Part shown: positions 5,000 through 57,141 of the stretch, piece after piece | How positions within the stretch are numbered: position 1 is the first letter of the stretch | How the letters are laid out: every line of letters begins with the position of its first letter | From: an uncultured Bacilli bacterium | Lineage (GTDB): Bacteria > Bacillota_I > Bacilli_A > RF39 > UBA660 | NCBI GenBank assembly: GCA_934101115.1 | Contig: CAKOPW010000006.1 | Location: forward strand, 18,632-82,631 | Reading direction: 5' to 3' | Length of the DNA stretch: 64,000 nt | The notes under the pieces: model-generated | What the model was told of the DNA's origin: nothing | What the model saw: the letters and a program-made list of their open reading frames with translations, nothing else | Databases searched by the model: none | Translations under genes and position numbers: made by a program

Positions 5000-6181
5000 T
5001 TATGCTATTCTGAATGCTGGAGAGATTCCAGCTATACTATCAGCGTAGCTGTCTGAAAAAGTTCCAAAAATGGAAACATATAAAAAGCCCTTTTGATCCG
5101 AATTAAATGCTGAACGTAACCACCATCCAGTATTATTTGAATTATATTGTTTAATTAAATCATTATAATTTGTCTTACTTACACCTAATTGCTTGTAATA
5201 ATCAAGTTGTTTTGAAGTTCCTACTGATGTATCAGAATCTTCTACATTGTATATTTCTTCAATGGATAGTAAATATAGTTTATCTTGAGTTTCAAAGTTT
5301 TTTTCTCCTGATGTACTTCCATGTCCTGATATTACTTTTGTTGAAACTATAATATTTTGTAAGTCTGTTGAAAGAGAATTAAAAACATCACGATTTATAT
5401 ATGTACGCATTTCCGAATCTCTCCATCCACCTATGTTTGAAATTGTACTATTTATATTGTGTTTTGCTATTATATCAGCAAATTCTACTACAAATCCACA
5501 TGCTGTTTCGCTTGTCTCTCCATTCGTACATTCACTCATATTTGATATACGTACTGTGTGTGTTCCTAAATCACCTAAGTCTACTTCTTTTGTATCACCT
5601 ACATTATATTTACTTGTATTTCCAGTATGCACATTTGCTGCTATTGTAGACCAACTATCTTGTTGGAATGCTGGTATTTCTTCTCCTATTGTATCTCTTT
5701 CTACGGCAGTAAATTCTAACTTACATGTATATTCTTCACTTACCTCTTCTGTTGATGTTTTATCTAGTGTTACTGTTAATGTTCCATTTAAGCTTTCCTT
5801 TGCTTTCACTACTGTTGCATCATTTTCTAGTTTGTTCTTTATACTTGTATATTTTGCTGTTGTTCCGTCCTTTGGTACACATGTTATACTTACTTCTGCA
5901 TCGTAGTTACTTGAATTGTTTGTTACCTCATATGTTAGTATTGATGTTTGATTTAATGTTTTTAATTCACTAGTTGTAAATGTTATTATTTTCTTTGTAT
6001 CATCTACAACTGTTAAATATACGTCCCTTCCATCTAAACTTGCTGCTGTGAAGATTACTGAGAAGTCATCTCTATTTTCACTTACTTTGGCATTCCCATT
6101 TATTATTAATGTTGTTGATACTGCTGCAAATCCAATTGACATTAAAATAATTGCAACTATAAGCATACTTTTCTTCTTCAT
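5000..6181 (-). CDS. Secreted or membrane-anchored protein: shared N-terminal module plus a C-terminal WWLRS/ISPAF domain (DUF6273-like as I recall)
   Basis: 393 aa; N-terminal MKKKSMLIVAIILMSIGFAAV hydrophobic signal/anchor; first ~165 aa nearly identical to the upstream paralog; GWWLRSA ... GISPAFRIA at the C-terminus. Confidence 0.6.
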   Translation of the reverse strand: MKKKSMLIVAIILMSIGFAAVSTTLIINGNAKVSENRDDFSVIFTAASLDGRDVYLTVVDDTKKIITFTTSELKTLNQTSILTYEVTNNSSNYDAEVSITCVPKDGTTAKYTSIKNKLENDATVVKAKESLNGTLTVTLDKTSTEEVSEEYTCKLEFTAVERDTIGEEIPAFQQDSWSTIAANVHTGNTSKYNVGDTKEVDLGDLGTHTVRISNMSECTNGETSETACGFVVEFADIIAKHNINSTISNIGGWRDSEMRTYINRDVFNSLSTDLQNIIVSTKVISGHGSTSGEKNFETQDKLYLLSIEEIYNVEDSDTSVGTSKQLDYYKQLGVSKTNYNDLIKQYNSNNTGWWLRSAFNSDQKGFLYVSIFGTFSDSYADSIAGISPAFRIA

Positions 6182-14831: not shown

Positions 14832-16310
14832 CTATAATACAATAGCTATTAATTTATCAGAGCCTTTATTTACAATCTTACTAACAGTGCTTGAAAGTTT
14901 ATAACGAGTGGAATCTTTCATCATCATTAATTTAGTTTGAATACCTTCTTTAACGATTTCATCTAGGCTTCTACCAAATATTTCACTTTTCCAAATGCTT
15001 GTAGGATCATCATTATAATCTCTCATAATATAGTCGATTAATTCTTTAGATTGAACTTCAGTTCCAATTATTGGTTCAAAAGTGGATTCAACATCAACCT
15101 TAATCATATGAATTGAACTAGCTTTAGCTTTTAATCTTACTCCGTAACGTGTACCTTGTTTTATGATTTCTGGTTTTTCAAGCATCATATCTTTTAATGT
15201 TGGATAAACAATTCCATATCCACATCCATGAGCCATCTTTAAAGCTTCAGATAAGCATTTATTTTCTTCTTCACTTTCATGATATCTTGAGAATACTTTT
15301 AGGATACTTGCTTTACTTACATTTGAATATCCGACAATATTCTTTAAAGTTTCATTATAAAGCTCATCAGAACTATCAAGGTTTAGAGAAACAACACCTG
15401 TACCAGCATCAAATTCACTTATATATGCTCGAGATATAATATCCGAATCAGTATAATAATTGATTATCGAATTAACATCACCCATTTTATTGACGTTAAT
15501 AACACTTTCTTTTATTTTATTTAGATAATGCATTTTTATTTCATTTTTGTTTGGTAAAACGTGTACCCATTCAGGAAGTTTTACTTCAACATCAACAATT
15601 GGGAATTCATCTATTGCACTTCTTAAAATATCATTGATTTCTTTTTTACCCATAGCTTCAACATTTAAAGGAATTACTTTTACTCCATGTTTTTCTTCAA
15701 TTTCCATCTTTATCTTTAATGTATCTGGATTATCTGTGTGAGTAGTGTTAAGAATAACAATAAATGGTTTATTTATACTTTTAAGTTCTTCAATTACTTT
15801 AGTTTCACCATCTATATAATCACTTCTTTTAAACTCTCCAAAAGATCCATCAGTAGTTATAACAATTCCAATTGTAGAATGATCTTTTATAACTTTTTCA
15901 GTTCCAATTTCGGCTGCCTCGATAAATGGGATTGCTTCTGGGTACCAAGGCGTATTGACTAGTCTTGGGTTAGATTCAGCATCTTCATACCCGATTGCTC
16001 CATCAATAACATAACCAACACAGTCAATAAGTTTGATGTTTGTTTTAAAGTCATCTATTTTAATTACGGCCCCTTGTGATGGAACAAATTTTGGCTCAGT
16101 AGTCATAATCTGTTTTCCATTTGATGATTGAGGAATTTCATCTAAACATTTTTTCTTATCGTATTCGTCTTCTATATTTGGAACGACTAAATTTTCAATT
16201 ACTTTTTTTATAAAAGTTGATTTACCAGTTCTAACTGTACCAACAACTCCTAGATATATTGATCCGTTTCCTCTTGCGGATATATCTTTAATTATGTCTT
16301 TCATCTCCAT
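14832..16310 (-). CDS. spoIVA: Stage IV sporulation protein A (spore coat morphogenetic ATPase)
   Basis: 492 aa; DISARGNGSIYLGVVGTVRTGKSTFIKK Walker A; collinear with B. subtilis SpoIVA, also 492 aa. Confidence 0.9.
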   Translation of the reverse strand: MEMKDIIKDISARGNGSIYLGVVGTVRTGKSTFIKKVIENLVVPNIEDEYDKKKCLDEIPQSSNGKQIMTTEPKFVPSQGAVIKIDDFKTNIKLIDCVGYVIDGAIGYEDAESNPRLVNTPWYPEAIPFIEAAEIGTEKVIKDHSTIGIVITTDGSFGEFKRSDYIDGETKVIEELKSINKPFIVILNTTHTDNPDTLKIKMEIEEKHGVKVIPLNVEAMGKKEINDILRSAIDEFPIVDVEVKLPEWVHVLPNKNEIKMHYLNKIKESVINVNKMGDVNSIINYYTDSDIISRAYISEFDAGTGVVSLNLDSSDELYNETLKNIVGYSNVSKASILKVFSRYHESEEENKCLSEALKMAHGCGYGIVYPTLKDMMLEKPEIIKQGTRYGVRLKAKASSIHMIKVDVESTFEPIIGTEVQSKELIDYIMRDYNDDPTSIWKSEIFGRSLDEIVKEGIQTKLMMMKDSTRYKLSSTVSKIVNKGSDKLIAIVL

Positions 16311-17797: not shown

Positions 17798-18632
17798 TCA
17801 ATAATGAAATCCATCTAATATTTTTTGAACTTCTTCATCAGGTTTATTACGATAATCAGCACAAGGACTTAAAGTAAAACTATATAGAACATCATCATAT
17901 TCCATATAAACGCTTCTTCTCCTTCCATATTCAATTCCATAAGCCATTGTGCCAAGTTTTCCTACTTTATACTTTGGGATAGTTTCATCAGTATAGTTTC
18001 CATGGTTTAATTCACTATTTTCTTTTATTTCAGCATACTTAGTTTTTATTAAAATATTAAAATTAACAGTAGACACATTTTTGTTTTCTTTATTATCATA
18101 CATGAAATACATTACCCATATAAAGATTTACAGTTGCTATTTTTCCATCTTTCTTTTCTAAAGTTCTTAAAATAAATTTATCTCTTTTAAACAAATCATT
18201 TCTTAAAAGTTTTATACCTAACTCTTTTTCTAATTCTTCATATGTATACATTGAATAGCTGCTTTTATCTATTGGTTCATTCTTGAAAGAATCAATGCCA
18301 CTACCAGTTGGCTCTTTCAAATTAGCATTATAATTTATTTTTTTAACACCATTATATTTTAATTTGATTCTTTGAACATCATTATTATCAACTTTTTCTG
18401 TATAAGACTTAGTAAAGATTGATGTAACAATTTCTTTGATTTCTTCAGCGTAAGTTATACCCGTTCCAACAATTAAAATACTGAAGACTATAATTAAACT
18501 AAAAATAATTTTATTTTTTTTCTTTCTTTTTTTATATCGCTTAATAGTTTCTAATCTTAGATAGTCATTTCTTTCATCTGTTAAAACAATATTGCTAATA
18601 TTATCAACATACTCTTGTTTTAATTTATTCAT
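17798..18632 (-). pseudogene. Paralogous anti-sigma-like gene split by a frameshift near 18096-18112
   Basis: ORFs 18096-18632 (N-part with TM) and 17798-18112 (C-part) together are collinear with the intact 262-aa paralog (LRN.LFK..F, IKTKYAE). Confidence 0.6.
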
Positions 18633-19092
18633 CTTTACCCTCCATTTCTACTCTTAATTTTTCTTTGCCTCTTAATAAGTTCATCTTTATAGCAGATTCA
18701 GATTTTCGCATAATCTTAGCGATTTCTTTTATCTTATATCCCTCATAATAATATAAATATAATGATATTCTATAATCTTTTGGAATGGCTTTTAATAATT
18801 CAAAAGTGTCAAATTTATTTAAGTCGTATGATTTTATTTCATCTTCTAAACTCTTTATAAGTTTTTTCCAAGGCGATTTAAGCAAATCTTTTGTATTATT
18901 TATACTTACTCTAAATAACCACTTTTTTATTTCTTCATTTTCTAATAATAGAATCTTTTTATTGTTATACAACTTCATAAATGTTTTTTGAAGAATATCT
19001 TCAGTATCCTGAATATTAAAAAGATAACTATAAATCAGTTTATAAACATCTTTACTATATAAATAATATATTTCATCAAAACGATTATTCAT
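18625..19092 (-). CDS. ECF-type sigma-70 family sigma factor (second copy)
   Basis: 155 aa; DTEDILQKTFMKLY; YKIKEIAKIMRKSESAIKMNLLR. Confidence 0.8.
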   Translation of the reverse strand: MNNRFDEIYYLYSKDVYKLIYSYLFNIQDTEDILQKTFMKLYNNKKILLLENEEIKKWLFRVSINNTKDLLKSPWKKLIKSLEDEIKSYDLNKFDTFELLKAIPKDYRISLYLYYYEGYKIKEIAKIMRKSESAIKMNLLRGKEKLRVEMEGKDE

Positions 19093-19174
19093 AGTTTACT
19101 CCTTTCAACTTATTAACGATTTAAATTAATAAAAAGTCACACTAAATAAAAAAGAACAAAATTAATTGTTCTCC

Positions 19175-20416
19175 TTATGCTAATTTTCTAGCTTCTATTT
19201 CAGCTGTTAAGCGTTCCTTTTCGTCTTCTGTTAATATAATTTGTTTATCAAGCTCTTCTAACATTTTTTCATAATCACTTAAATCTAAATCCGGATTATT
19301 ATCTAGTTCATGAAGCAATGCTTTAAAATCATTTTCTTCTTGTAAGGATCTATCAAGTACTTCATTTTCTTTTTCAATGTACATAGTTGCTGCATTCTCA
19401 TACTCATCAATTTTATCACTTTTTTTATCAAACTCTTCATCAGTAACTTCATCTGTTAAAGTTCTATCTTGTTTATATAAATCAAACTTTATGTCCTCTA
19501 TGCTTCTATTTTGTATTCTTTCATCACGAATTTTTTGCATATATTCAGAGATTCTTGCTTCATATATTGAAGGAAGTACCTTACTCTCTAACTCAGGTTC
19601 ATCCTCCTTAAGTCTTTTTATGGCTTCTGCGCGTATATTAATATAATCAGCATTTTCAACTAAAGTTTCATCATCACTTTTTTCAAACACTACTTTTTCA
19701 GCTGATATATTTTCATCTTTTAGTTCTTCTGGAGTTTTTTCCTCTTCTTTTTGTTCTTCTTTTTCTAAAGCAGCTATTTCATTTTGAAGAGCTTCAATTC
19801 TCGCAAAATTTGGATTACTTTGAACTTTTAAATCTTGTAATTCTCTTTTTTTAGAATCTAGAATACTTTCTTTATTCTTATCGTTTTCATTTGTTTCCTT
19901 TTTAGCGTTAATACGAGCATTTTCTACTGCCTCTTTGATTTCCTTATAATCAGTTTTAGCAAGACTTTCGTTTACTATTTTTACTTGAGTCTCATACTTT
20001 TCAATATATTCATCTAATTTGTTTAAAGTTTTTGGATAAGATGATTTAATTACTGAAGTAAACTCCGGATTTTGAGAGATTAAATCTTTTACTCTTTTGA
20101 ATTCATTTAGCTTTTGATCAAGTTCATTTTTTTGATCAACCATTTCCTTACTAGGTATTTCAAATGGTACTATGATTGTTGCTCCAAAAATATCTTGAGA
20201 TTCTTTTAATCCATCTATCACGCCCATTTTCTTATAATGATTATAATCAAAGATTAAAGAATCATATTCATAAGTTATTTTTATTTTATCCGTATTCTTT
20301 TTAGTTAAATTTTCTACACTTTGAAGATTATTTATTCCGGTAAAATAAGAGATAATTCCTTTATTAATCGTTGGATCAAATACTTTAGATGTTCTTAATG
20401 CTTGTATTGCTTGGTG
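19175..20416 (-). pseudogene. 3' portion of an acidic coiled-coil protein gene whose reading frame stays open 63 codons upstream of the first ATG, up to the ICE junction
   Basis: Frame translated by hand: HQAIQALRTSKVFDPTINKG...YNHYKKMGVIDGL; no start codon or SD upstream; stop at 20417-20419 lies inside the recombinase 3' end. Confidence 0.5.
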
Positions 20417-22173
20417 TTACTATCGGAACATAAAAGAACATTTTTTCCTTTATTTTCAAGGCTTCCACAATCAATTTCAATGTTCCTGTACTGACTGTTT
20501 TGAATCTCTGTATCAGTACAAGAACATTTTTCTGGATAAAAATTTGATAACTCAAGTTTTTTTCTTTTGTTATCAATTTCTAATTCTCTGTATATTGTAT
20601 CGGCATTAAAATTGAAATAAATAATTAGTCTTACATGTTTTCTATCACCATTTATTTTTTCAACTTCTACTCTTTCTACTAATATTCTCATTAAATTAGG
20701 TAGCTGACTCTGTAAATCAACTTTTGATGTAAGTGTATTTCTAACTTCCGTTATTTTTTCCTTTAATTTTGTAAGTTCTGCATCAGGATTATTAAGTCTA
20801 TCTATTTTTGCTTTTAAGGAATTAATTTCATTGTTAAACTTATCATTTCTTTTCTTAAACTCTAAATCATCAATCAATCCTTTAATACTCAAATCTAATA
20901 ATTTATCCTTTTGCTTTTCTATTTTTATAATTTGATTGTTTATACTTCCTATATCATCAGAACTCTTATTACTGCTTATAATATTCTCATATTCATTTAT
21001 TACTTGATTTAAATATTCTTTTTTATTATCTATAAAATCACTAAATATTTGTACAAATATCTTATCTAGATAATCTTCCCTTAAGATTGGTGAAGCACAA
21101 GCACCAACCCCTTCAGTCTTATATTTCTTACAAGACCATGTAGGATTATTTGCTCTATTACTTCCACCAGCTCTTATAAATACATTTCCACAATCCTTAC
21201 AATATAATAAACAACTATATTTTGAATTCTCTAATGACTTTTCAGAATTTAAAATATGTCTTGCAGATGATTTTTTTCTCATCTCATGAAGTTCATTTGC
21301 TTTATTCCATAACTCCTCAGATACAATTGCTGGAACTCTATCATCCTTTTCAATTATTTGTCTTTCTTTTGGAACTTTTTTCTTTTTATGTGTTTTATAA
21401 TTTTCAACCTCAGTTAGCCTAGCAGTATAATACCCTTTATATCTAGGATTAGTTAAAAATTTTGCCATAGTTGTATCGGAATATGGTTCACCTTTTGAAT
21501 TTAAATATCCCATTTTTGCAAGATCTTGCCCTATCTTTTTAAGACCAACTTTTCCAGATGCATAAGTTTCAAAAAGATATGTAATTATTGGTGCCTCTGC
21601 TGGATTAATTTCATATCTTCCATCTTTTTTGAAATATCCAGTTAAATTACCACCAATAAGTTTTCTGTCTTTAATCATTCTATTAACACCAAATTTAACT
21701 CTTTCTGATAGTTTTCTAACTTCATCTTGAGCCAAACTTGACATAATTGTAAGTCTAAACTCTGAATCCTCTTGAATTGTATTAAGATTATCTGATAGAA
21801 AATATACAATAACCCCATGCTTTAATAAATACTCTGTATATTTTATACTATCAACAGTATTTCTTGAGAATCTTGATATTTCTTTTGTAACCACCATATC
21901 TATTTTTCCTAGAGTAGCATCTTCAATCATTTTTAGGAATCTATCTCTATTTTTTACAGCAGTTCCACTAATTCCTTCATCTATATAACCACCACAGAAT
22001 ACCCAGTTTTTATTTTCTGTTATCATTTCTTCAAAATAGTTTTGTTGATTTTCCAAACTATTTAACTGATCATCCTTATCTGTTGAAACACGAGCATAAT
22101 ATACTACTCTAAGTGGCATATCATAAATCGTTTTTCCTTTTCTTAAATCTTCTCTTGCTTTTTTTATATCCAT
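20395..22173 (-). CDS. Large serine recombinase (TndX/TnpX/SpoIVCA class)
   Basis: 592 aa; N-terminal resolvase domain VVYYARVSTDKDDQLNSLENQ (catalytic Ser), recombinase domain, Cys-rich zinc ribbon CKDCGNVF..WSCKKY, coiled-coil. Confidence 0.9.
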   Translation of the reverse strand: MDIKKAREDLRKGKTIYDMPLRVVYYARVSTDKDDQLNSLENQQNYFEEMITENKNWVFCGGYIDEGISGTAVKNRDRFLKMIEDATLGKIDMVVTKEISRFSRNTVDSIKYTEYLLKHGVIVYFLSDNLNTIQEDSEFRLTIMSSLAQDEVRKLSERVKFGVNRMIKDRKLIGGNLTGYFKKDGRYEINPAEAPIITYLFETYASGKVGLKKIGQDLAKMGYLNSKGEPYSDTTMAKFLTNPRYKGYYTARLTEVENYKTHKKKKVPKERQIIEKDDRVPAIVSEELWNKANELHEMRKKSSARHILNSEKSLENSKYSCLLYCKDCGNVFIRAGGSNRANNPTWSCKKYKTEGVGACASPILREDYLDKIFVQIFSDFIDNKKEYLNQVINEYENIISSNKSSDDIGSINNQIIKIEKQKDKLLDLSIKGLIDDLEFKKRNDKFNNEINSLKAKIDRLNNPDAELTKLKEKITEVRNTLTSKVDLQSQLPNLMRILVERVEVEKINGDRKHVRLIIYFNFNADTIYRELEIDNKRKKLELSNFYPEKCSCTDTEIQNSQYRNIEIDCGSLENKGKNVLLCSDSNTKQYKH

Positions 22174-22215
22174 TGTTTACTCACTCTCCTCCCATGTTCT
22201 TAAAAAGCAAGATAA

Positions 22216-22464
22216 CTAGGATGATGACATGCTACCATGATTTTTTCCTATTGTCAAACCATCATTAATCTTGTCTTTATATTCATTTTTCATTTTTGTC
22301 ATTCTTCCAAGTATTGATTGTTCCATTAAACTAAAAACTTTTAAATCAATTATTTTACTCTCATATAATTCTCTATTTAAAATTAGTCGCCATTCTAATA
22401 ATTTATACTCTAAAGGCAAATGTTTGGTACTACACTTTATTTCAATTTCATCTGTGTTATACAT
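22216..22464 (-). CDS. Hypothetical small protein (82 aa)
   Basis: ORF only; position between T4CP and recombinase. Confidence 0.35.
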   Translation of the reverse strand: MYNTDEIEIKCSTKHLPLEYKLLEWRLILNRELYESKIIDLKVFSLMEQSILGRMTKMKNEYKDKINDGLTIGKNHGSMSSS

Positions 22465-22529
22465 GTTATACCATCCTCATCAAACTATATGAGATAAAGA
22501 TATAAATAATACTAAATAAAGAAACGACA

Positions 22530-24539
22530 TTATTTATTCTTTTCCTTTCTTAATTCTTGTTCTTGGTTGAATGTGCTTTTTAAATGAATCTCAATAACAT
22601 TTTTGCCATTATCATTATTACTTATTTCAATATGATATACTTTATTATCCAATTGTCCTTTTATTAAAGATTTTTCCATTTCGCCAATGTTTTTATTCAA
22701 ACTAATAACAGAAAATGTTCTATTGTTTTTAGTCTTATATTCAAAATTAATAATGTTATCTTTTATAATATCTTTAACCTGTTCTATTGCCCTTAAAAGT
22801 TCTTGTTCTTCGGCTTCTCTTTGTTCCTTATAAAAATCTTTAGCACTCATATTTAATTCATCATCTACTTTTTTAAATCTTCCACCTATTGGTGATTTTA
22901 TTTGTTCAACCGTGAAATATGTATCATCAAGTTGTTTTAATGAATTAGCTTTTCTTTCAATTTCACCTTTTTTATAACAAGAAAACTTATTATACATAAC
23001 AGTATCTCTAAAAATAGGATAACCTATTATAGGAAATATTATAGTTTTATAATGAAGTTGTTTTACTTCATCTGGTGTAAGTAAATCTCTTGCCATTAAA
23101 GAAGTTGATTTATTACCATTATAGTCTAATAAGCTAAGTGATTGACTTATAGAACTACTTGATATTGTTGTCTTACCTAACCTTTTAGATATTTGTTCTG
23201 CTGTATCTTGTGTATTTGTTTTTAAATAAATAAGACCACAGTTATCAAGTATTATTTGAGCTACCTCTTTACCATACACATTATCAAGTTGGGAGAATGA
23301 TTGAATAAAGAAATGGAATCTCATTCCTCTACTTCTTGCAACTGATACTAATGCTTCAATATCTGCAAGTGGTGGACAATTTGCAAACTCATCAAGTAAC
23401 CAATCAATTTGTACTGGTAACTTTTTATTTTCTTTACTATTAGCAAGTTTTACTAACTCCTTATATAATAGTCCTACAATAATTGTAACTAATGTAAAAT
23501 ACACTTTATCTTCATCAGGGACTATTATAAATAATGCTGTTGCTTCTCTACCTAACAAATCAAAATCAAAGTCAGAATCAGATGTTACATTTGCTACATT
23601 AACATCATCAAATAAAGACATCTTTTCACCAAACACTGCTGTAATAGATTTATAAGTATTATCACTTGCATTAAGTATTGATGTTAAAGAATCCTTACTT
23701 TTACTTCCGTAATCTTTCCTATCAATATAAGTCTTAAACTTATTAAAGTTTTTCTCTTGCATTGAACTATTTTGAAACTTGCGGATAGATGTCATAGTAA
23801 TCTGATTTCTTTTTATATTATTTTTCTTATATTCTTCTAAAAAGAATCCTATTAAACCTTCTAATAAATTTCTTGCACTATTATTCCAAAATGGATCTTT
23901 TTGCTGAGTTTTCTCTTGCATTATCATCGTAGCAAGTGAAGTTATTAATCTATTAGTTTCAGCAAGGGAAGTCATTGCTAAATTATTATATTTAACTTTA
24001 TCTTTTTTACTTACAATAGATTTTTTTTCGTATTCAATGTACCTCTCATATTCTTTTATTATTGGTTCCAATATATTAAAATGATTAGACATTTCTGGAT
24101 GTCTAAAATCAAGTGTTAATACATTATATCCATTGTCCTTAAACATTTTTGAAGTTGTATTAAATATTTCACCTTTTGGATCAGTTATAAAAACACTCCT
24201 TTTATTCTTTGCAGTAGCAATAAATGAACACATAGGAATAACAGCAGTAACTGATTTACCACTACCAGTTGAACCAAGATAAGTGTAGTGTGGTGTTTCT
24301 CTATCAAACCAAACATATTTAAAATCTTTACTAAACCATATAGGTACACCAGATTCTTTAATATTATTAATTTTTTCTTTTTTAAAGTTTTTCTTAATTT
24401 CATTATAGGTTGAGAATCTTGCTGAGCCATATTCATTATTATTTTTTACTTTATGTTTTGATATAGCTGGCTCTATAAACATAAATCCTACTATAAACAA
24501 AAGTAAAAGAGCTAACACAATGGTTAGCTCTAAAGACAT
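22530..24539 (-). CDS. Type IV coupling protein (VirD4/TraG/TcpA-like)
   Basis: 669 aa; N-terminal TM; Walker A GSTGSGKSVTAVIPM; Walker B-like DWLLDEFAN. Confidence 0.8.
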   Translation of the reverse strand: MSLELTIVLALLLLFIVGFMFIEPAISKHKVKNNNEYGSARFSTYNEIKKNFKKEKINNIKESGVPIWFSKDFKYVWFDRETPHYTYLGSTGSGKSVTAVIPMCSFIATAKNKRSVFITDPKGEIFNTTSKMFKDNGYNVLTLDFRHPEMSNHFNILEPIIKEYERYIEYEKKSIVSKKDKVKYNNLAMTSLAETNRLITSLATMIMQEKTQQKDPFWNNSARNLLEGLIGFFLEEYKKNNIKRNQITMTSIRKFQNSSMQEKNFNKFKTYIDRKDYGSKSKDSLTSILNASDNTYKSITAVFGEKMSLFDDVNVANVTSDSDFDFDLLGREATALFIIVPDEDKVYFTLVTIIVGLLYKELVKLANSKENKKLPVQIDWLLDEFANCPPLADIEALVSVARSRGMRFHFFIQSFSQLDNVYGKEVAQIILDNCGLIYLKTNTQDTAEQISKRLGKTTISSSSISQSLSLLDYNGNKSTSLMARDLLTPDEVKQLHYKTIIFPIIGYPIFRDTVMYNKFSCYKKGEIERKANSLKQLDDTYFTVEQIKSPIGGRFKKVDDELNMSAKDFYKEQREAEEQELLRAIEQVKDIIKDNIINFEYKTKNNRTFSVISLNKNIGEMEKSLIKGQLDNKVYHIEISNNDNGKNVIEIHLKSTFNQEQELRKEKNK

Positions 24540-30203: not shown

Positions 30204-30626
30204 TTACTCAAAAAAATAATTTAATTCATCACTGCTTATATTAATGACATCTTTCATATAAACAATATCATTATCAGTAAATTTAATATATTCATTAACT
30301 GAATCAATTCTTTTAACAATACCAGTTTTATTTATATATTTGCCACCACTTTTCTTACTGTCATTGATAAAATAAGTTACGGTTATTTCAATGTTTTCTT
30401 TAATATGCTCATTGATATAATTTAACTTACTATTAAGCATTTCTTTTAATCCATCATCAATTTCTATTCTTTTATCTGTAAGTCTTGCTGTTTCTTTTAC
30501 GGCTTCATCATATCCTACTAAAGCTGCAAAAGGTGCAAATTGAGATGCTCTTGATTCTATACTTAAGTGTGAATGTTTTGATATAGGTCTATTCAAATTT
30601 ATAATATCATCATAGTTATTTATCAT
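30204..30626 (-). CDS. YolD-like protein
   Basis: RASQFAPFAALVGYDE motif; 4-nt overlap with the upstream Y-family polymerase, as in SPbeta uvrX-yolD. Confidence 0.65.
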   Translation of the reverse strand: MINNYDDIINLNRPISKHSHLSIESRASQFAPFAALVGYDEAVKETARLTDKRIEIDDGLKEMLNSKLNYINEHIKENIEITVTYFINDSKKSGGKYINKTGIVKRIDSVNEYIKFTDNDIVYMKDVINISSDELNYFFE

Positions 30627-32125
30627 CCTTTATGACCTCCAACTTCTTCATTTCTATCTTTTGCAGTTGCTCCTTCTTCAAAATTCATTCCTCTTAAAAT
30701 AGAATTTTTTCCGAATTTCTTTTTTATATCTAATAAAGTTTTTTGAATCTTTTTCTCATCTTCTTCATCTTTAAGATTAATTTCTTTTTGTTTATTAACA
30801 ACTTCATAATTTGTAAACAAGTCAAGTTGTTCCACCGTTGAAGTTGTTTCCTTATAATCTTCACTAACCACATTACACGCTGTTAAGTTTATTCTTCTAA
30901 CTAATAAAATTGGATTAACAATTTTATCATACAATTCAACTACTTTCTGTGTAATTAATTTTGTAGATGAAGTTCTATGATCTATATTAATAGTACCATG
31001 AGAATGTTTAGGGATTTTTCTCCCATATCCGTCAATTGTTATTTCACCATGATACTTATTTGCAATAGCTTGATTAGTTAAGTTTTCAATATCATATCCT
31101 ATCGTTAAAACAAATTGATTAGTCTTTAAATGTTTAGCAACTAAATCTAAAACTAAATTATCAACCATTTCTCTAACTATTAATTTAGTTTTTTCATAAT
31201 TATAAGGACAATGTAATACTTGACCTTGGCTAATGCTATTTGAAGCTGGCTTATAACTTTTTGCTTCTTTTATTGTACATGTTTCATATCCCCATGCATG
31301 ATCTATAAGAAATTCAGCATTGACTCCAAACAACTTAAATAGAAAATCCTCATTATTAATAGACATTCTAGCTACATCACCCATAGTAAACATACCATTT
31401 TCTTCTAACTTTTTTTGGTATCCTTTTCCAACTCTCCAAAAATCAGTTAGTGGTCTATGATTCCATAATTCCTTTTTATAAGACATTTCATCAAGTCTTG
31501 CCATTCTAACCCCAAATTCATTTGGTTTCATTTTCTTAGCAGTAATATCCATAGCAACTTTTGCTAGATACATATTTGTACCTATTCCTGCCGTTGCAGT
31601 TATACCAGTAGTTTTATACACATCCTCTATCATCTTTATGACTAATTCCTCAGCAGTCATCTTATAGAAAGTTAAATAATTAGTAATATCACAAAATACT
31701 TCATCAATAGAATAAACAAGTATATCTTCTGGAGCAATATATTTTAAATAAACATTATAAATATCCGTACTATATTTCATATATAATTTCATTCTAGGAA
31801 CAGCTTTGATAAAGTCTAGTTCAAATGAAGTATTATTATTTAATTCTGAGGCAATATACGACTTTCCAGTAAATGGTTTGTAATGATTATTTTTTCTTCT
31901 TTGATAATTAACTTCCTTTACTTTTTGTTTTGCCTCAAATAATCTACATCTTCCAGATAATCCATAAGACTTTAGTGATGGTGATACAGCAAGACAAATA
32001 GTTTTATCAGTTCTTGATTCATCGGCTACTACTAAATTTGTATCAAGTGGATCAAGTCCTCTTTCTCTGCATTCAACTGAAGCATAAAAACTTTTTAAAT
32101 CAATACACATATATATTTTATCCAC
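30623..32125 (-). CDS. Y-family (DinB/UmuC/UvrX-like) translesion DNA polymerase
   Basis: MCIDLKSFYASVECRERGLDP, SIDEVFCDIT, GIGTNMYLAKVA. Confidence 0.9.
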   Translation of the reverse strand: MDKIYMCIDLKSFYASVECRERGLDPLDTNLVVADESRTDKTICLAVSPSLKSYGLSGRCRLFEAKQKVKEVNYQRRKNNHYKPFTGKSYIASELNNNTSFELDFIKAVPRMKLYMKYSTDIYNVYLKYIAPEDILVYSIDEVFCDITNYLTFYKMTAEELVIKMIEDVYKTTGITATAGIGTNMYLAKVAMDITAKKMKPNEFGVRMARLDEMSYKKELWNHRPLTDFWRVGKGYQKKLEENGMFTMGDVARMSINNEDFLFKLFGVNAEFLIDHAWGYETCTIKEAKSYKPASNSISQGQVLHCPYNYEKTKLIVREMVDNLVLDLVAKHLKTNQFVLTIGYDIENLTNQAIANKYHGEITIDGYGRKIPKHSHGTINIDHRTSSTKLITQKVVELYDKIVNPILLVRRINLTACNVVSEDYKETTSTVEQLDLFTNYEVVNKQKEINLKDEEDEKKIQKTLLDIKKKFGKNSILRGMNFEEGATAKDRNEEVGGHKG

Positions 32126-32925: not shown

Positions 32926-34242
32926 TTAATATTTTTTAGAATATGAATTATCAGTTTGAAACAATTTACTAAATTCTTTTTGTGCCTCTTCCATTTCAGC
33001 ATTGATACTTTTTACAGCATTTATAATTTTATATTTATTTTGGTATTTTAACTTAGGAACAGTATTTGTTAAATAATTACTAAGTATCGTGTATCTATTT
33101 TGATTCTTATTTTTCTTATACTCTTTTAAGATTATTTCTCGCAATATATCATCTGGATTTAATGTTTTATATTTTTTTGAATTACTTTTAAACATATAAT
33201 CTGCATGATTAACAATTGCATTATAAATATAATTATCTATGTAATTTTTCTTACTTTCTGTTAAAGTTTTATCTACATTTATTTTTGAAATATTATTATC
33301 TTCATTAACTTTATATAAATATCCATTTATATTATTAATAGATTCTGTAAAATTTATATAATCATCATAAAATTCAGATTTAGAACAAAATAAATATTTT
33401 TTTATTCGTTTAGTTAAATCTTTAATTTCTTTATCTTTGATAGAATTAAACTTAATTCTTTTAGAGTTATTATTTCTTTCATCATAAAGTAATTTACCCA
33501 AAGTAAGAATATCATCTTCAAGTAAAATATCTTTTTTATCATAGAGTATAAAATTCTTTTCCTTTGGATTAAAATATTTTTTTAATTTATCAATTTCGTC
33601 ATTAGTTATTGTTATCATTGGATTGAGATATTTTTTTCTTTCAACAGCAAAAACTACTTCATTTTTCATAAAGTTTATTTCTTCTTGTGTAAGTTTACCT
33701 TTTCTTCTATAACCCAATTTATTATTAGACAAAATGTAATTTGGTTTCTTTTCTATAAAGCTAACATGAGCATGTAAATTATCAGTATCTGTATGAAAAG
33801 ACAAATTATAGGCCATATTCTTTTTATCTTTAAATCCCATCTTTTTAAAGAATCTTGGAAGAACATTCTTTATAAGTTCTTGTTCTAAATCTTGTAATGA
33901 TATATTTTCATTTAAATAATCATTATTAAAACTAATTACACATTGCCACAAATTAGAGTCTTCAGCATACTTTACAAAGCGTTTTTTTCTTTTTTCTATT
34001 TCTTCTTTTGTAGCATAACTACCATCTTCAATGACTAAATTCATTCTTTCATTTTTGTTAAGTTCTCCAGTATAATAATCAAACAGATTCATTACTCTTT
34101 TATCTTCATTTGAAAAATAATCAAATTTACGAGCTATCTTCTTTTTTAATCCCTCTATTTGTTTAGCAGTATAATTTTCTTCCCTACGATTAAATGCATG
34201 AGTAAATTTACAATTAAATATAACCTTAGGACTAGTCATCAA
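32926..34242 (-). CDS. Relaxase (MobA/VirD2-type relaxase/mobilisation nuclease domain)
   Basis: SFHTDTDNLHAHVSFIE matches the HxDxD(x)nHxH histidine triad of PF03432-type relaxases. Confidence 0.65.
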   Translation of the reverse strand: MMTSPKVIFNCKFTHAFNRREENYTAKQIEGLKKKIARKFDYFSNEDKRVMNLFDYYTGELNKNERMNLVIEDGSYATKEEIEKRKKRFVKYAEDSNLWQCVISFNNDYLNENISLQDLEQELIKNVLPRFFKKMGFKDKKNMAYNLSFHTDTDNLHAHVSFIEKKPNYILSNNKLGYRRKGKLTQEEINFMKNEVVFAVERKKYLNPMITITNDEIDKLKKYFNPKEKNFILYDKKDILLEDDILTLGKLLYDERNNNSKRIKFNSIKDKEIKDLTKRIKKYLFCSKSEFYDDYINFTESINNINGYLYKVNEDNNISKINVDKTLTESKKNYIDNYIYNAIVNHADYMFKSNSKKYKTLNPDDILREIILKEYKKNKNQNRYTILSNYLTNTVPKLKYQNKYKIINAVKSINAEMEEAQKEFSKLFQTDNSYSKKY

Positions 34243-36823: not shown

Positions 36824-37756
36824 TTAATTAAAGGGATTGTGAGGTTCATTTTCACTTCCAAGTGTTGGATATGTACTAGGTAATGTTGGATGAATCTTGG
36901 ATGTTTCATTTTCCTTATTAAAATCTACTAAACTAAGGCCATCAATTACTTTTCCATTTTCAGAAACTTGATAATGTAAATGATTACCAGTTGAATATCC
37001 TGTTGTTCCCACACTAGCTATTTGTTGCCAACTTGAAACTTTATCACCTATTTTAACTTTAGATGAACTAGGATATAAATGACCATATAATACGATATAT
37101 TCAATATCATCTACCATACATTTTAATTTAATATAATTACCTGCTCCTCCATTAGTATCTATAGTATTTGTAGAATATTTAAACGACACATCAGTAATCT
37201 CACCATCACAAGTTGAATATACAGGTGTTTCTGCTGATGCTCCAAAATCCCATGCTGAATGAGTATTAGGAGTGCCATAAACAATTCGTTCTTCCATAAA
37301 ATAACTTGTAACAGATAAATTAGAAAAATCTAGTGGCGAATTAAAAGGCTTATTTTGTATTTCATTTATTTGGCCAGAATCTTTAATTTCTTCACTATTA
37401 CATACAGAATATATTTTATATCTATCCATTTTGCATACTTCTGAAATAGGTTTGACTTGTTTTAAATCTATATCTAAATTATCTGTGTATATTTGATCAA
37501 AAGTCAAATTATCATTTTCTAAATAAAAATACAAAATTCTATCAAGAGATACATAACCATTATCATTCATTATGTTTTTCCTAACAACAGCTTTATACAT
37601 ATCAGCATATTGGCTATTATTTTCTACATAACCATCAGTTATGTTTGCACCAAAAAAGTCCAGTAACATAAGAACAGGGATTAGTATTACTAACCCCATT
37701 CCTATCATACCAATAGAAGAAGATATAATTAATTTAAATATCTTGCTCTTTTTCAT
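36824..37756 (-). CDS. Membrane-anchored M23 peptidoglycan hydrolase (conjugation-associated)
   Basis: N-terminal TM; HSAWDFGA (HxxxD) and GNHLHYQV (HxH). Confidence 0.85.
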   Translation of the reverse strand: MKKSKIFKLIISSSIGMIGMGLVILIPVLMLLDFFGANITDGYVENNSQYADMYKAVVRKNIMNDNGYVSLDRILYFYLENDNLTFDQIYTDNLDIDLKQVKPISEVCKMDRYKIYSVCNSEEIKDSGQINEIQNKPFNSPLDFSNLSVTSYFMEERIVYGTPNTHSAWDFGASAETPVYSTCDGEITDVSFKYSTNTIDTNGGAGNYIKLKCMVDDIEYIVLYGHLYPSSSKVKIGDKVSSWQQIASVGTTGYSTGNHLHYQVSENGKVIDGLSLVDFNKENETSKIHPTLPSTYPTLGSENEPHNPFN

Positions 37757-38042
37757 GTTTCTTTTCCCTAAAATGATTACAATAGATATTTAAATCACAA
37801 GCAAGATCTATAAAGAAATTTAATCTTTCTTTTTCTTCTTTATTCTCTATGTTTCCATAAAGTAGTATATCATTCACTGCTGTTCCAACTTCCATAGCAA
37901 CATTCGTTGGCTTGTTTGATAAAATATAATCATAATTTTTATAACAATTTTCTTCTGTACCATATACATCTTCAAATTCAAATGCTAAATGTTGTTTAGA
38001 AAATTTAATCAATTCATTACACAATTCATCTTTGCTCTTCAT
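37734..38042 (-). CDS. Hypothetical protein (102 aa)
   Basis: ORF in operon. Confidence 0.4.
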   Translation of the reverse strand: MKSKDELCNELIKFSKQHLAFEFEDVYGTEENCYKNYDYILSNKPTNVAMEVGTAVNDILLYGNIENKEEKERLNFFIDLACDLNIYCNHFREKKHEKEQDI

Positions 38043-40519
38043 TCCTCTTCACCCATCATTCTTCTTTCAGTAGCAGTAGCCTCTATCTTAATTCCAATTC
38101 TAGTTTTATTATCTATGCTGAGTAAAAATTCTCCTCTTTTGGCTCCAAGTAAAAAATCTATTTGAGTATCTGTTAAGGGATTATTTTTAAATAATTCCAA
38201 GTATGCTTTTAAATCATCTTCTTTTAGCATACCAACCATAGTATATTGACAATTGTTAAATATAGCAGTTGCATGTCTTAGCACACTTGCATTACCTAAA
38301 AAATCGGATATACACTGACTAGATAAAATTAAATTAGTATTATATTTTCTACATCTTCTTGCAAGTTGTCCAAAGTTTTTTATTACTTCATTATTGTTTT
38401 CATCAATATATAAATGGAATTCATCTACAATAATACTAATATGTTGTTTATCACTAGATTCTCTTTTCTCATTTATGATTTTATTTGCAACTATACTATT
38501 ATTTAAATAAGTTAGTAGATTTAATATTTGAGTATTTATAATTCTTTGATTACCACTATAAAGAAGTTCCTGTAAGTTAAATGCAATTAAATCATTATTT
38601 AAATCTATTGAAGTATGAGAATTAAATAAATAAGAATCTGTTCCAGTTAAAAATCTAGACAAAAGTATTTCTAATTGATCTACAATTCTCATTTTTTCTT
38701 CACTCTCTAAAGACTTTTTGTATTCAGGTAAATAATTATATAAGTCCGTGAAAATTGGATAATCATTTGCATTTAATGTTTGAAGAGTATTTATTGAAGT
38801 ATTTTTATATATACCTTGTTTATTATATAAAGATTCCAATATTGCTAGTAACATAACTAATTCTTTTTCATTTATATTATCAAAAGCACTTTTAAAAAAT
38901 GCTTCTAAGAATCCTAAATGTTTTGCTAAAGGACAATCAGTTTCTTTTGTTTCTCGATCCTCATCACTTGGTATATATCTTATTTGAAGTGGATTTATCA
39001 TTCCACCTTTTTTAGAATATAAATCAATATACTCTCCATCATTTGGTTTTACTAACTTTTCATACTCATTTTCTGCATCAAAAATAAAAATTTTTGTTCC
39101 TCTAGCAAATTCATTCACTATTATTTTTTTCATAGTAAAACTTTTACCTCCACCTGTTGATGATACAATTGCCAGATTATGAGATGTCCTTTTATTGTTA
39201 AGAATGAATGGATCAAAAAATACTGGTAAAGAAGTATGAATATCTACTCCTAACATGTATCCTGTTGGATCAATAAAATTCGCTTTTGTAAATGGGAAAC
39301 CTGCTCCTAGCGTAATTGTAGGAAAATAGTTAGAATAATCTTTTAGAGAAGTTGTTGTTACATCAAATGATTGCCAAGTTTCTAATTGCCTTAATCTAGG
39401 AAGATCAAGTTTTATACGATTCTTTTTTGCAATCTTTTTTAAATCTCTAATAGTATCTTCTCTTTCTTTTCTATCTCCTGTTACAAGTAAAATCAAAGAT
39501 ATTTCTTTAATTTTTTCATCACCACTTTTAATGTCATTCATAAGAAGTTGATAGTTTTCTTTCTTTATATCTAACTCCGTTGCATCACTTAATTTCTTTG
39601 TTGTACTCCTATCCGATAACAAGAATTGGTACTGTGAATTAATCCATCTTATCAATTCATCTTGATCAATAGCATCTTTAATATTTAAACAGCTTCTAAC
39701 ATTTGGATAATTAAATATTTCTTCAAAAAATAATTCATCAACAAATGGAGCAATATTCTTGATTGTTAAAAGTTGAACTTCATTGTCATCAATTTTTAAC
39801 ATATTAGTTCTTTCAACTAAATTAAGTGGAACAATCAACTCTTCAATTTTACTCCACATCAACAAGTCCAGTGAATTATCACTTAAATATAAATTTGATA
39901 GAAACTTATATACTTCTAATCTATTTGTTATTATTTCAATATTTAATCTAGGTTGTATATTAGCAAATAAATCTTCTACCTCATCTAACTGTCTTTCTAG
40001 AGTATCTGTATCTTTTGCAATTAGAACAATATAATAAATACTAGAAACAGTAAAATTATTTTGTTCCAATTCATCTATTAAATTTCTACTTTCATTAAGT
40101 AAAAATAATCTTTTCAGATCATTTTTAAATCTTTTAATTAACCTATCTAGATTTAATTTATTATTATTTAAATTAATAGGCTCATCTAATTTATAAAATT
40201 TTAAATTTAAGTTTTTAATATGAAATAAACTTCTATAATAATTAAAAAAGTTTATTTTTTCTTGTTTACTTGATAATGATAAATCAATAGCTTTAACTTC
40301 TATTAGTGAAGCGTACTCTCCACTTTTAAGTTCTATTAATCCATCATCACCAACATCCTTTATATTAGAAAAAACTTTAGAATTTTTAATTCTTCTTTTC
40401 ATTATGGAAGTTTTTAAATATTCAGATTTAGTTTTTTCTTTTAATTCATTTATTTTATTTAAAGATTTTAAATCTTTTTCTTCTTGACTCTTTTTTGGGA
40501 ATAACCCTATATTAACCAC
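38039..40519 (-). CDS. VirB4-like conjugative ATPase (TcpF / Tn916 Orf16 class)
   Basis: 826 aa; Walker A SSTGGGKSFTMKK; Walker B IIVDEFHLY. Confidence 0.85.
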   Translation of the reverse strand: MVNIGLFPKKSQEEKDLKSLNKINELKEKTKSEYLKTSIMKRRIKNSKVFSNIKDVGDDGLIELKSGEYASLIEVKAIDLSLSSKQEKINFFNYYRSLFHIKNLNLKFYKLDEPINLNNNKLNLDRLIKRFKNDLKRLFLLNESRNLIDELEQNNFTVSSIYYIVLIAKDTDTLERQLDEVEDLFANIQPRLNIEIITNRLEVYKFLSNLYLSDNSLDLLMWSKIEELIVPLNLVERTNMLKIDDNEVQLLTIKNIAPFVDELFFEEIFNYPNVRSCLNIKDAIDQDELIRWINSQYQFLLSDRSTTKKLSDATELDIKKENYQLLMNDIKSGDEKIKEISLILLVTGDRKEREDTIRDLKKIAKKNRIKLDLPRLRQLETWQSFDVTTTSLKDYSNYFPTITLGAGFPFTKANFIDPTGYMLGVDIHTSLPVFFDPFILNNKRTSHNLAIVSSTGGGKSFTMKKIIVNEFARGTKIFIFDAENEYEKLVKPNDGEYIDLYSKKGGMINPLQIRYIPSDEDRETKETDCPLAKHLGFLEAFFKSAFDNINEKELVMLLAILESLYNKQGIYKNTSINTLQTLNANDYPIFTDLYNYLPEYKKSLESEEKMRIVDQLEILLSRFLTGTDSYLFNSHTSIDLNNDLIAFNLQELLYSGNQRIINTQILNLLTYLNNSIVANKIINEKRESSDKQHISIIVDEFHLYIDENNNEVIKNFGQLARRCRKYNTNLILSSQCISDFLGNASVLRHATAIFNNCQYTMVGMLKEDDLKAYLELFKNNPLTDTQIDFLLGAKRGEFLLSIDNKTRIGIKIEATATERRMMGEEE

Positions 40520-42166: not shown

Positions 42167-42490
42167 CTAAAATAAATCAATAATTAAATTAACAATAGAT
42201 ATTGCTAAAATAATACCAATTATACCAAACATAGTTTGAATTATTCTTTGCTTTACTCTTTGTTTTTGATCTACATCAGCAACTGCATATAAAATAAATC
42301 CAATAATAAGTGAAACACCTGCAAGTGCTATACCTACTCTTAAAGCCCAATTTGAAAAAGTTTGAATAGCTTTAATAATTGAATCTATGTTATAATTACC
42401 ACCATCTAATTTTTCTATTTTTAATAAACTTACACTACCACTAAGTTTTTCAACTATGGTATTTAGCATAAGTTTAGGCAATATTTGCAC
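42167..42490 (-). CDS. Small membrane protein (VirB2/TcpD-like position)
   Basis: 107 aa, two C-terminal TM helices. Confidence 0.4.
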   Translation of the reverse strand: MQILPKLMLNTIVEKLSGSVSLLKIEKLDGGNYNIDSIIKAIQTFSNWALRVGIALAGVSLIIGFILYAVADVDQKQRVKQRIIQTMFGIIGIILAISIVNLIIDLF

Positions 42491-44375: not shown

Positions 44376-44627
44376 CACTAAATAAATTTTTCTTTTATTT
44401 CTGGAATATTCTATTTTGATATAATTATTTTTCTCTAGTTCAGACAATAATCTTGTTATTGTTCTTTCTGTCACGGATAAAATATCACCTAGATGTTTGT
44501 TTGAAGCAAAACAATATCCATTTTTATAACATAATAGTTGAATATCTCCATATAACAATTTCGCATTACTACTTAAATTCTTATTATTTTTGATTGATAA
44601 AGGTATCTTAGAATATTTTTCATACAC
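44343..44627 (-). CDS. Winged-HTH DNA-binding protein (replication-initiator/DnaD-N-like small protein)
   Basis: 94 aa; SNKHLGDILSVTERTITRLLSELEKNNYI HTH; its 3' end overlaps the direct repeats. Confidence 0.5.
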   Translation of the reverse strand: MYEKYSKIPLSIKNNKNLSSNAKLLYGDIQLLCYKNGYCFASNKHLGDILSVTERTITRLLSELEKNNYIKIEYSRNKRKIYLVSRVDDFDHLG

Positions 44628-45259
44628 TAATACTCCACCTTATCAACTAAATATCCTATAAAGACAGTTTGCTTATCTTTAGTACCTTTTTTACAAGTAA
44701 TAAGTGTTATTGCACTTTTATATCTATTTCTTACAATTTCAATTTTACCATCTTTATCTGTATCATAGGAATTGTTTAATTTATAAATGTATTTTATTCC
44801 GTCATAATAGATATATATTAATGAATCTTCCTTCAATTTATATAAGTTTCTAAAAAAAGAAACACCACTTGTTCCATTATGTCCTGCTAGTATTAAATTA
44901 CTATTTTCAACATTAGGCATTTGTGAATGCTCTATTATTTGAATATTATACTTAACATTATTATATCTACTATTATAATCAACAATACCTCTTTTCAAGT
45001 TTATACTTGGTATTTCAAGAATAGCAATATAATTATAAGATGGTGAGGAAGATTTTTTATTTTCTTCCTCTTTTAATTGTTCTTGAAGACTAACTTCCTC
45101 AGATTGTTCTTCTTCTATAAAGAAGTCATCCACCATCTTAACTTCTTGTACTTCTTTTTTTGTATTTTTATAAATATCAAAAGTAAAAATAAAAACTGAA
45201 ACTATTATTAATATAAATCCTATAATTAATACTATCTTATTTTCTTTTTTTCTTTTCAT
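44627..45259 (-). CDS. Sortase (class B-like), dedicated to the upstream adhesin
   Basis: N-terminal TM, LILAGHNGTSG (His), AITLITCKKG (TLxTC Cys). Confidence 0.8.
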   Translation of the reverse strand: MKRKKENKIVLIIGFILIIVSVFIFTFDIYKNTKKEVQEVKMVDDFFIEEEQSEEVSLQEQLKEEENKKSSSPSYNYIAILEIPSINLKRGIVDYNSRYNNVKYNIQIIEHSQMPNVENSNLILAGHNGTSGVSFFRNLYKLKEDSLIYIYYDGIKYIYKLNNSYDTDKDGKIEIVRNRYKSAITLITCKKGTKDKQTVFIGYLVDKVEY

Positions 45260-48044: not shown

Positions 48045-48085
48045 ATTATATCCCTCCTTCATAAAAAAAGACATCACTTAAGATG

Positions 48086-49321: not shown

Positions 49322-49813
49322 CTAAAATTTAAATTTTTTTGAAATATTTTTAATTGCTGTATCAATTGAGTATTTTACAGCAACTTTGGAACACTTTTCT
49401 TCATTAGCAATTTCTTCATAAGTCTTATCGTAAAAGTAATATTTTATTATTCTTCTTTTTTGAATATCATTTAATTCATTGATGGCAGATTTTATTTCTT
49501 CACTTATAATTTTGTTAGATACTTCCTCTTCTACAGATATGGTTTCAGTAATACTTCTATGATAAAGTGTTTCTTCATATAATTCGTTAAATTCAATGTG
49601 TTTCCTAATCTTATGAATTTGAGATATATCCTCTAATTCAAAACTATCAAAAGCATCATATACTTCTTTTGAAATAATCATTTCCTGTTGATTATTTCTA
49701 CTATCTTTAAACTTTAATATATAACAATTATTTTCTTTTATTTCTAAAGTATAAGGATTATATTTATCCTTATTTCTTGTTTCGTGTTTATTCATTTTTT
49801 CTCTCCTTATCAA
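49322..49813 (-). CDS. Sigma-70 region-4-like HTH regulator (Tn916 Orf7-like position)
   Basis: 163 aa; C-terminal QKRRIIKYYFYDKTYEEIANEEKCSKVAVKYSI. Confidence 0.55.
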   Translation of the reverse strand: MIRREKMNKHETRNKDKYNPYTLEIKENNCYILKFKDSRNNQQEMIISKEVYDAFDSFELEDISQIHKIRKHIEFNELYEETLYHRSITETISVEEEVSNKIISEEIKSAINELNDIQKRRIIKYYFYDKTYEEIANEEKCSKVAVKYSIDTAIKNISKKFKF

Positions 49814-49872
49814 CTTAATTTTTTAAATTGATAAAGGAGGTCCACGAATAAATAAGTAAACTTTTATTAAAC

Positions 49873-49919
49873 AAAAAAAGGTGTCAAAAATATCCCTATT
49901 TAGAATATCTTTGACACCT
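49873..49919 (-). terminator. Intrinsic terminator in the 470-bp non-coding gap
   Basis: 10-bp stem aggtgtcaaa / tttgacacct plus U7 on the minus strand. Confidence 0.6.
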
Positions 49920-51394: not shown

Positions 51395-51508
51395 TAAAAC
51401 TAATTGATTTTGTACTGCTGTTTCTATTATAACACATTTTTAGTCTATTTCCCCAAGAAATATGAATATACCCCAATTAAATGGGAAAATTATATTAGGT
51501 GATTAAAT

Positions 51509-51946: not shown

Positions 51947-51967
51947 ATTATTAAATACTACTTCTTT

Positions 51968-54747: not shown

Positions 54748-54758
54748 TTTTTCACTCC

Positions 54759-57089: not shown

Positions 57090-57141
57090 AATCTACACTT
57101 ACTCCTTTTTTATAGAGATAATTCAAAAATTATACATATAT

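Follow-up and report, generated by a model that had tools for sequence, protein, structure and literature searches.

The 64,000-nucleotide stretch analyzed here (the window; positions 18,632 to 82,631 of contig CAKOPW010000006.1, assembly GCA_934101115.1, from an uncultured, spore-forming Bacilli bacterium of the gut) carries an integrative and conjugative element (ICE) of 42,293 bp that lies between the two halves of a single gene encoding a 504-amino-acid (504-aa) protein. Based on the two junctions, the empty site in a relative and a sister element located in spoVD, we consider it very probable that the ICE was inserted by its own large serine recombinase (LSR) and that the 504-aa gene served as a secondary, off-target site. 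The insertion is an ordinary mobile-element event at an unusual site, and an LSR-type ICE inside an open reading frame (ORF) is already a known kind.

The element lies between the halves of one gene

On the minus strand of the window, a 350-aa ORF (ATG at 20227, stop at 19175-19177) is preceded by 63 in-frame codons, none of them ATG, GTG, or TTG, which reach back to a TAA (20417-20419) located within the LSR ORF (20395-22173). No Shine-Dalgarno motif was found ahead of the ATG at 20227, where the product would begin MGVIDGL, on direct reading of the sequence. These features had been described in an earlier reading made from the DNA alone (the sequence-only reading) and are borne out by translation and by the sequence itself, and its estimate that such a stop-free stretch has well under 1% probability by chance agrees with the computed values, which at the local base composition are 0.0017 for 63 stop-free codons and 1e-4 for codons that are both stop-free and start-free. 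In the whole 1.54-Mb genome, a startless leader of at least 63 codons is found in only 4 of the 1230 frames that run 150 codons or more from stop to stop, for which the median leader length is 4.5 codons and the 99th percentile is 46 codons. Long startless leaders were also seen on contigs C18 (minus strand, from 1606) and C14 (minus strand, from 34666), with lengths of 67 and 100 codons, respectively; the long frame of C14 resembles a tyrosine-integrase fragment, and both may be further interrupted or truncated genes.

Extension of the 350-aa ORF through the startless codons gives a 413-aa translation, and a search with it for an uninterrupted homolog, as the sequence-only reading had suggested, was successful. 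It recovers 26 full-length homologs of 494-510 aa, which cover 94-100% of the extended translation with identities of 48-93%, the best being a 504-aa protein (P0001) that is 93% identical. Each of these full-length homologs has approximately 92 additional N-terminal residues beyond the 413-aa extension. None starts at the MGVIDGL methionine, and the sole 350-aa entry is the window's own product. In relatives that lack the element, the sequence upstream of 20227 continues into the 5' part of the gene, which in the window is found elsewhere. Specifically, a tblastn search of the window's genome with the N-terminus of P0001 places residues 1-95 with 97% identity at 62698-62982, on the same contig and strand. 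The sequence-only reading had proposed that the ICE is inserted within a protein-coding gene, and this is upheld by the homologs that span the extension, by the 5' half and by the empty site discussed below. It had also held that only the 3' part is visible and that the 5' fragment should sit to the right of the window, and in these respects it was mistaken, as a 95-codon 5' part with its own start and ribosome-binding site (RBS) is inside the window, with the other junction at 62699-62703.

The two fragments, both on the minus strand, are as follows. The 3' fragment (19175-20410) comprises approximately 410 codons, numbers ~94 to 504 plus the stop, is 93% identical to P0001 residues 93-504, lacks a start, and contains both the 350-aa ORF and the 63-codon startless stretch. 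The 5' fragment (62699-62982) starts at ATG 62982, which is preceded by AGGTGG, and comprises codons 1-95. It forms the beginning of a listed 107-aa ORF (62671-62994) and its frame continues past SLEKEAI for eight element-derived codons (LVLLQEHF) to a stop at 62671-62673. Hence, for annotation, the 350-aa and 107-aa ORFs are the halves of one gene. The native upstream region (62983-63057, minus strand), which is kept at the empty-site locus, holds the AGGTGG RBS, an extended -10-like box, TGGTATATT, and an upstream terminator hairpin, and we suggest that this box is the promoter of the 504-aa gene. Neither fragment has a stop or a frameshift, and when the flanks are joined across one GCAAT the 504-aa ORF runs through without interruption, collinear with the homologs. 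An excision-type joining restores the intact reading frame.

The gene itself is not a recognizable one. The 504-aa protein has no match to a family in Pfam, NCBIfam, or PHROG, and its AlphaFold2 model (20 sequences; pLDDT 68, pTM 0.35) consists almost entirely of helices, apart from one small hairpin, and gave only generic coiled-coil matches (E > 0.2) in a Foldseek search of the PDB. The product is a lineage-specific helical/coiled-coil protein. The gene appears from its surroundings to be monocistronic, between hairpin terminators, and is found in 5 of the 22 genomes of the genus (intact homologs in 4 of the 21 others). The relatives that carry homologs are 'Firmicutes bacterium CAG:582' and uncultured Bacilli represented by metagenome-assembled genomes. 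Its only link to sporulation is its position five genes upstream of spoIVA (14832-16310), and the family and fold searches, together with its presence in 5 of 22 genomes, do not identify it as a sporulation-specific gene.

Junctions, attachment sites, and the empty site

The sequence common to the two junctions is GCAAT on the minus strand. At the recombinase end it lies at 20406-20410 (ATTGC on the plus strand), within the interval of about 20380-20420 that the sequence-only reading had assigned to attL, and at the distal end it lies at 62699-62703, with its AA at 62700-62701. Read on the minus strand, the distal junction (62703-62699) is ...GAAAAAGAAGCAAT/CTTGGTGTTACTAC... and the recombinase-end junction (20410-20406) is ...GTAACACCAAGCAAT/ACAAGCATTAAG..., where the slash marks the junction. 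Next to each core is a 22-bp arm, one at 20411-20432 within the 3' end of the recombinase ORF and the other at 62677-62698, and these match one another in inverted orientation at 18 of 22 positions. The attP of the element thus has two 22-bp arms as half-sites on either side of a central AA, as would be expected for the attP of an LSR. While GCAAT is common to both junctions at the 504-aa gene, AA alone is common to the two junctions of the sister element at spoVD, and it follows that the crossover dinucleotide is fixed at the attP center. We infer that the crossover dinucleotide in the window is the AA at 20407-20408. An attP with imperfect inverted arms and the lack of a target duplication are what is anticipated for integration by an LSR.

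The empty site, which defines attB, is provided by a 35-kb gut-metagenome contig (L001) that encodes P0001 intact and has the same downstream gene order as the window, namely a sigma/anti-sigma pair, a second such pair, SpoIVA, and CpsB. By blastn, 18433-20412 of the window aligns collinearly with 12255-10278 of L001, and 62699-63057 of the window with 10284-9926 of L001, with collinearity broken exactly at 20412/62699. The intervening 20413-62698 has no counterpart in L001 (blastn), and the element is therefore 42,293 bp in size. The identical junction and neighboring genes are present in three further assemblies (L012-L014), showing that this is a real insertion rather than an assembly chimera and that the lineage is in circulation.

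Two differences in the surrounding region were noted. Similarity to L001 stops at 63057, 75 bp upstream of the start of the 504-aa gene, and the genomes are unrelated beyond that point; the gene upstream of the split gene (63058-64000, minus strand) is unrelated to the ABC-2 permease gene that L001 has there, and by this comparison the left neighborhood would be a variable region. On the other side of the split gene, the anti-sigma gene that follows the first ECF-type sigma factor (17798-18632, minus strand) is frameshifted into ORFs of 178 and 104 aa. It encodes one 280-aa protein in L001 and is split likewise in L012-L014.

The recombinase and its C-terminus

The LSR is encoded on the minus strand at 20395-22173 and has 592 residues. 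Its Resolvase, Recombinase, and Zn_ribbon_recom domains span residues 23-166, 191-295, and 320-374, respectively, with a YARVSTD motif at 26-32, and a coiled-coil insertion is predicted in the zinc-ribbon region, such that the catalytic part with its nucleophilic serine, the recombinase part, and the zinc-ribbon part of an LSR are all represented. The nearest solved structure (3G13, E = 2e-40) is described as a 'putative conjugative transposon recombinase'. Directly upstream of the LSR gene is a conserved ORF of 82 aa (22216-22464, minus strand), which is found at the same position in L010, L011, and L012. Profile searches of Pfam, NCBIfam, and PHROG gave no family match for it, and its position makes it a candidate accessory or directionality factor.

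At least 8000 homologs of the LSR were found at E < 1e-20. They vary in C-terminal length and their tails diverge exactly past ...NTKQ, which indicates that the recombinase ORF spans the att site and that its stop codon is supplied by the flank. In the window, the last three codons and the stop (YKH*) are derived from the host gene. In the predicted circle, the LSR frame would cross attP to form a 900-aa open frame that is in phase with the DUF5655 ORF (61764-62627) at the distal end of the ICE. The frame across attP ends after approximately 130 residues in the sister element and after 66 in a contig from another metagenome (L009). A conserved fusion protein of the recombinase and DUF5655 was considered and rejected, as the long frame is not kept in either of these. 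Judging from the sequences compared, a flank-supplied stop, and with it a C-terminus that changes with the integration state, is a feature of the family, and this integration-dependent C-terminus might contribute to directionality. In L009 (4427-12883), the frame of a recombinase with 90% identity continues through an attP-like junction into a degenerate copy of the ICE distal end, past which there is a second serine recombinase of 544 aa, followed by the 3' part of spoVD, mraY, and ftsW/spoVE. This arrangement suggests a tandem array of elements at spoVD.

spoVD is the usual site of the family and is occupied

The usual site of the recombinase family is spoVD, at the codons of the SxN motif. 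Next to LSRs that are 98% (L010) and 92% (L011) identical to that in the window, the 3' part of a gene for a class B penicillin-binding protein (PBP) with a PASTA domain is found right past the junction. In a sister species (G001; locus L020), a 99%-identical LSR is located at this PBP gene (spoVD), with the 504-aa gene intact elsewhere. The C-termini tell the same story. At least 83 of the best 120 LSR homologs end in [PS][RGW][FVILM]C, the form that the PBP sequence 'NPGF' takes in the recombinase frame, and most of the remaining homologs have near-variants of the spoVD-derived tail or are truncated. Within this set, the YKH* tail is confined to the LSR of the window.

The genome that contains the window has its own spoVD split by a sister element at ENSCN/PGF, on contigs C43 (4258-5553) and C31 (1-2047). 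In C43, the 5' part of the PBP gene ends in ...VVENSCN, with the SxN motif, and is followed by 246 bp (5308-5553) that are 96.7% identical to the distal end of the ICE, while C31 begins with 1188 bp (1-1188) that are 97% identical in nucleotide sequence (98.5% in protein) to the recombinase end and runs on into PGFVVMG... and the remainder of the PBP. Compared with NCBIfam, the halves align to TIGR02214 (stage V sporulation protein D) over profile positions 2-346 and 347-635 and score 345 and 344.5 bits, where the cut-off for the entire protein is 688. Both scores are far above those of the PBP2 and FtsI models, and no intact spoVD ortholog was found elsewhere in the genome assembly. The genome thus carries two sister elements approximately 3% apart, located in spoVD and in the 504-aa gene, respectively, whose attP arms differ by one mismatch. 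This degree of divergence indicates that they are independent acquisitions rather than a recent intragenomic copy.

Proposed mechanism of integration and alternatives

We propose that the LSR would have recombined the attP of the element with a short chromosomal site that shares GCAAT, at codons 94-95 of the 504-aa gene, with integration proceeding without target duplication. The 5' piece (95 codons plus the 8 derived from the element) keeps the promoter and the RBS and the 3' piece is startless, such that in the integrated state the full-length product cannot be made from the gene. The ICE needs to be excised before transfer, and precise excision by the LSR would rebuild the gene exactly; we presume that excision still works from this site. 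The probable order of events is that spoVD was occupied and the second insertion then took place, with occupancy of spoVD plausibly the reason that a secondary site was used. Homologs of the 504-aa gene vary in the attB region, with GCAGT in place of GCAAT both in G001/L003 and in L015.

Several points weigh against integration at a secondary site. The attB half-sites of the 504-aa gene resemble those of spoVD only weakly (10 of 22 and 7 of 22 positions), and the exact rejoined protein is absent from a collection of 15 billion proteins. The four assemblies that bear the junction are identical in sequence and hence count as one insertion event in one lineage. The window and the sister element are on separate contigs (C6 and C31/C43, respectively) and could come from two co-binned strains. 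Moreover, no circle junction was found for the element, and the circle and the empty site in this particular strain are predicted from the sequence. A description of the 504-aa-gene site as a pseudo-attB that resembles the spoVD attB was also considered, and it was rejected in view of the weak half-site similarity.

The sequence-only reading had raised the possibility of a skin-like, excision-dependent reconstitution of the gene, in which the element would be excised in the sporulating mother cell by the LSR and a small directionality factor, and the 504-aa gene expressed once rebuilt. In its favor, the host has sporulation genes (SpoIVA at 14832-16310, with the domains shown on the L001 ortholog, and SpoVIF in L001), the usual target of the LSR family is a mother-cell gene, spoVD, albeit a different gene, a conserved 82-aa ORF lies ahead of the LSR, and spore formers are known to harbor gene-intervening elements that carry serine recombinases (PMC5595907). 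Both gene fragments are also free of stops and frameshifts, although this is expected anyway after a recent insertion, the four assemblies being identical. Nevertheless, such reconstitution is unsupported for the 504-aa gene and we consider it unlikely. The gene matches no sporulation or other family and no fold, is present in only 5 of the 22 genomes, and is interrupted at a point that is not conserved in sequence. The insertion is confined to one lineage and is a one-off site among the relatives of the recombinase, and a sigma-70 promoter and terminator scan of 19000-22700 stayed at chance level, with 24 promoter hits where 23.0 were expected from shuffled sequence. The element is a complete ICE, whose own transfer already accounts for the excision function. 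The idea fits the sister element in spoVD better than the element in the 504-aa gene. A related scheme, which we consider unlikely, is that the two sister elements, with their interchangeable recombinase and attP, are excised together upon activation of the recombinase system, for example in the sporulating mother cell, by which the 504-aa gene would be newly captured into a set of genes controlled by rearrangement.

Another explanation is that the LSR has evolved a dedicated specificity for the 504-aa gene, which would then be the primary attB. The junction is stably present in four assemblies, and the LSR of the window differs from its spoVD-resident relatives at a few residues. However, recombinases that are 98-99% identical use spoVD, including in a species with an intact 504-aa gene, and the attP arms barely differ from those of the spoVD-resident sister element. 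There is no other YKH*-type tail among the best 120 homologs, and the site varies to GCAGT, as noted above. We regard a dedicated site as improbable. Lastly, that there is no insertion at all, with the open stretch arising by chance, from a non-canonical start within the 63 codons or in a chimeric contig, has in its favor only the prior that AT-rich genomes contain odd ORFs and is already refuted by homologs that align across the whole stretch and 92 residues further, by a missing part found 42 kb away in the correct orientation and phase, by the rejoined ORF and the empty site, by a junction that recurs in independent assemblies and by a chance probability of about 0.002 or less.

The findings have the following implications. 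The window provides the exact attL, attR, attP, and attB for an abundant (at least 8000 homologs) uncharacterized recombinase family of gut Bacillota. The presence of one recombinase type at the usual spoVD site and at an unrelated second site in one genome represents natural use of a secondary site by an LSR-type ICE, and these two sites form a ready substrate pair for studying how sites are chosen and whether excision from them is possible. Insertion by members of the 'spoVD-splitting' family is not strictly limited to sporulation genes, a point relevant to whether the elements that split spoVD are developmental switches or site-specific parasites.

Gene content of the element

The ORFs of the element were assigned by Pfam scans and the genes described here are all on the minus strand. 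Following the LSR and the 82-aa ORF is a conjugation and maintenance module (22530-48077). It begins with the coupling protein of a type IV secretion system (T4SS; T4SS-DNA_transf/TraG-D_C domains, 22530-24539) and includes a Y-family polymerase (30623-32125), a MobL relaxase with a MobL/Relaxase domain (32926-34242), an M23 peptidase (36824-37756), an 826-aa VirB4-like ATPase (38039-40519; TraG P-loop/DUF87/AAA_10), a T4SS pilin (42167-42490), a sortase (44627-45259), and a thioester/SpaA adhesin (45237-48077). Also within this module are an N6/N4 methylase, an ABC/TetR cassette, SSB, and DUF3846. The regulatory and cargo part (49322-62627) contains a sigma-like protein (49322-49813), the hsdS/M/R genes of a type I restriction-modification (R-M) system (51968-57089), and GmrSD (58445-60925), with a 397-aa ORF between these two, followed by a macro-domain protein (60943-61683) and the DUF5655 protein (61764-62627). 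The defense cargo consists of the type I R-M system, GmrSD, the macro-domain protein, and the DUF5655 protein.

No second integrase was found in the Pfam scans of the element's ORFs. The element has the LSR at its end, a relaxase, a T4SS coupling protein, and a VirB4-type ATPase, and its junctions with the chromosome are defined, with an empty site in a relative, as befits an ICE. Elsewhere in the genome, a further ICE-like region (C3:44390-63021) has a conjugation module 66-86% identical in nucleotide sequence to that of the window and a distant serine recombinase (24.5% aa identity), and another large serine recombinase (32% aa identity) is encoded at C2:32796-34367.

Comparison with known systems

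Tn5397, through TndX, and related clostridial conjugative transposons integrate by means of a single large serine recombinase. Like Tn5397, the ICE of the window has an LSR as its sole integrase at one end and entered an ORF by crossover at a dinucleotide, leaving no target duplication, such that precise excision restores the target. It differs in that its transfer genes, with a MobL relaxase and a VirB4-like ATPase and coupling protein set, are not Tn916-like, in that its cargo is defense genes rather than tetM, and in that the recombinase ORF spans the att site and takes its stop from the flank, with spoVD as the usual target.

For the choice of site, the precedent comes from laboratory work on ICEBs1, which resorts to divergent secondary sites in the absence of its primary site and excises poorly afterward (Menard and Grossman 2013, PMC3715440). 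One of these secondary sites happened to be spoVD (PMC3715440), and a literature search for ICEs or LSR elements in spoVD found only these laboratory insertions. In both cases, ICEBs1 in those experiments (PMC3715440) and the ICE of the window, a site-specific element occupies a non-canonical site that bears little sequence similarity to its primary attB. ICEBs1, however, has a tyrosine recombinase and a tRNA gene as its target whereas the window ICE has an LSR, and the ICEBs1 insertions at secondary sites are laboratory products obtained with the primary site deleted, whereas the insertion described here arose in nature and a sister element fills the primary site.

Among gene-intervening elements, skin lies in sigK (SpoIVCA), SPbeta in spsM (SprA/SprB), and gin in gerE (GirC/GirX) (PMC5595907). 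As with these, an element with a serine recombinase splits a gene of a spore former and leaves the halves intact and in phase. In contrast, skin, SPbeta, and gin interrupt known sporulation genes, and mother-cell excision has been demonstrated for them, while here the gene is patchily distributed and outside known families, and the element is a complete ICE. Close relatives are the elements that split spoVD, namely the sister element in the same genome and those of L010, L011, and L020, with which the element of the window shares the LSR family and the attP; the copy in the window is the exception in that it resides in another gene.

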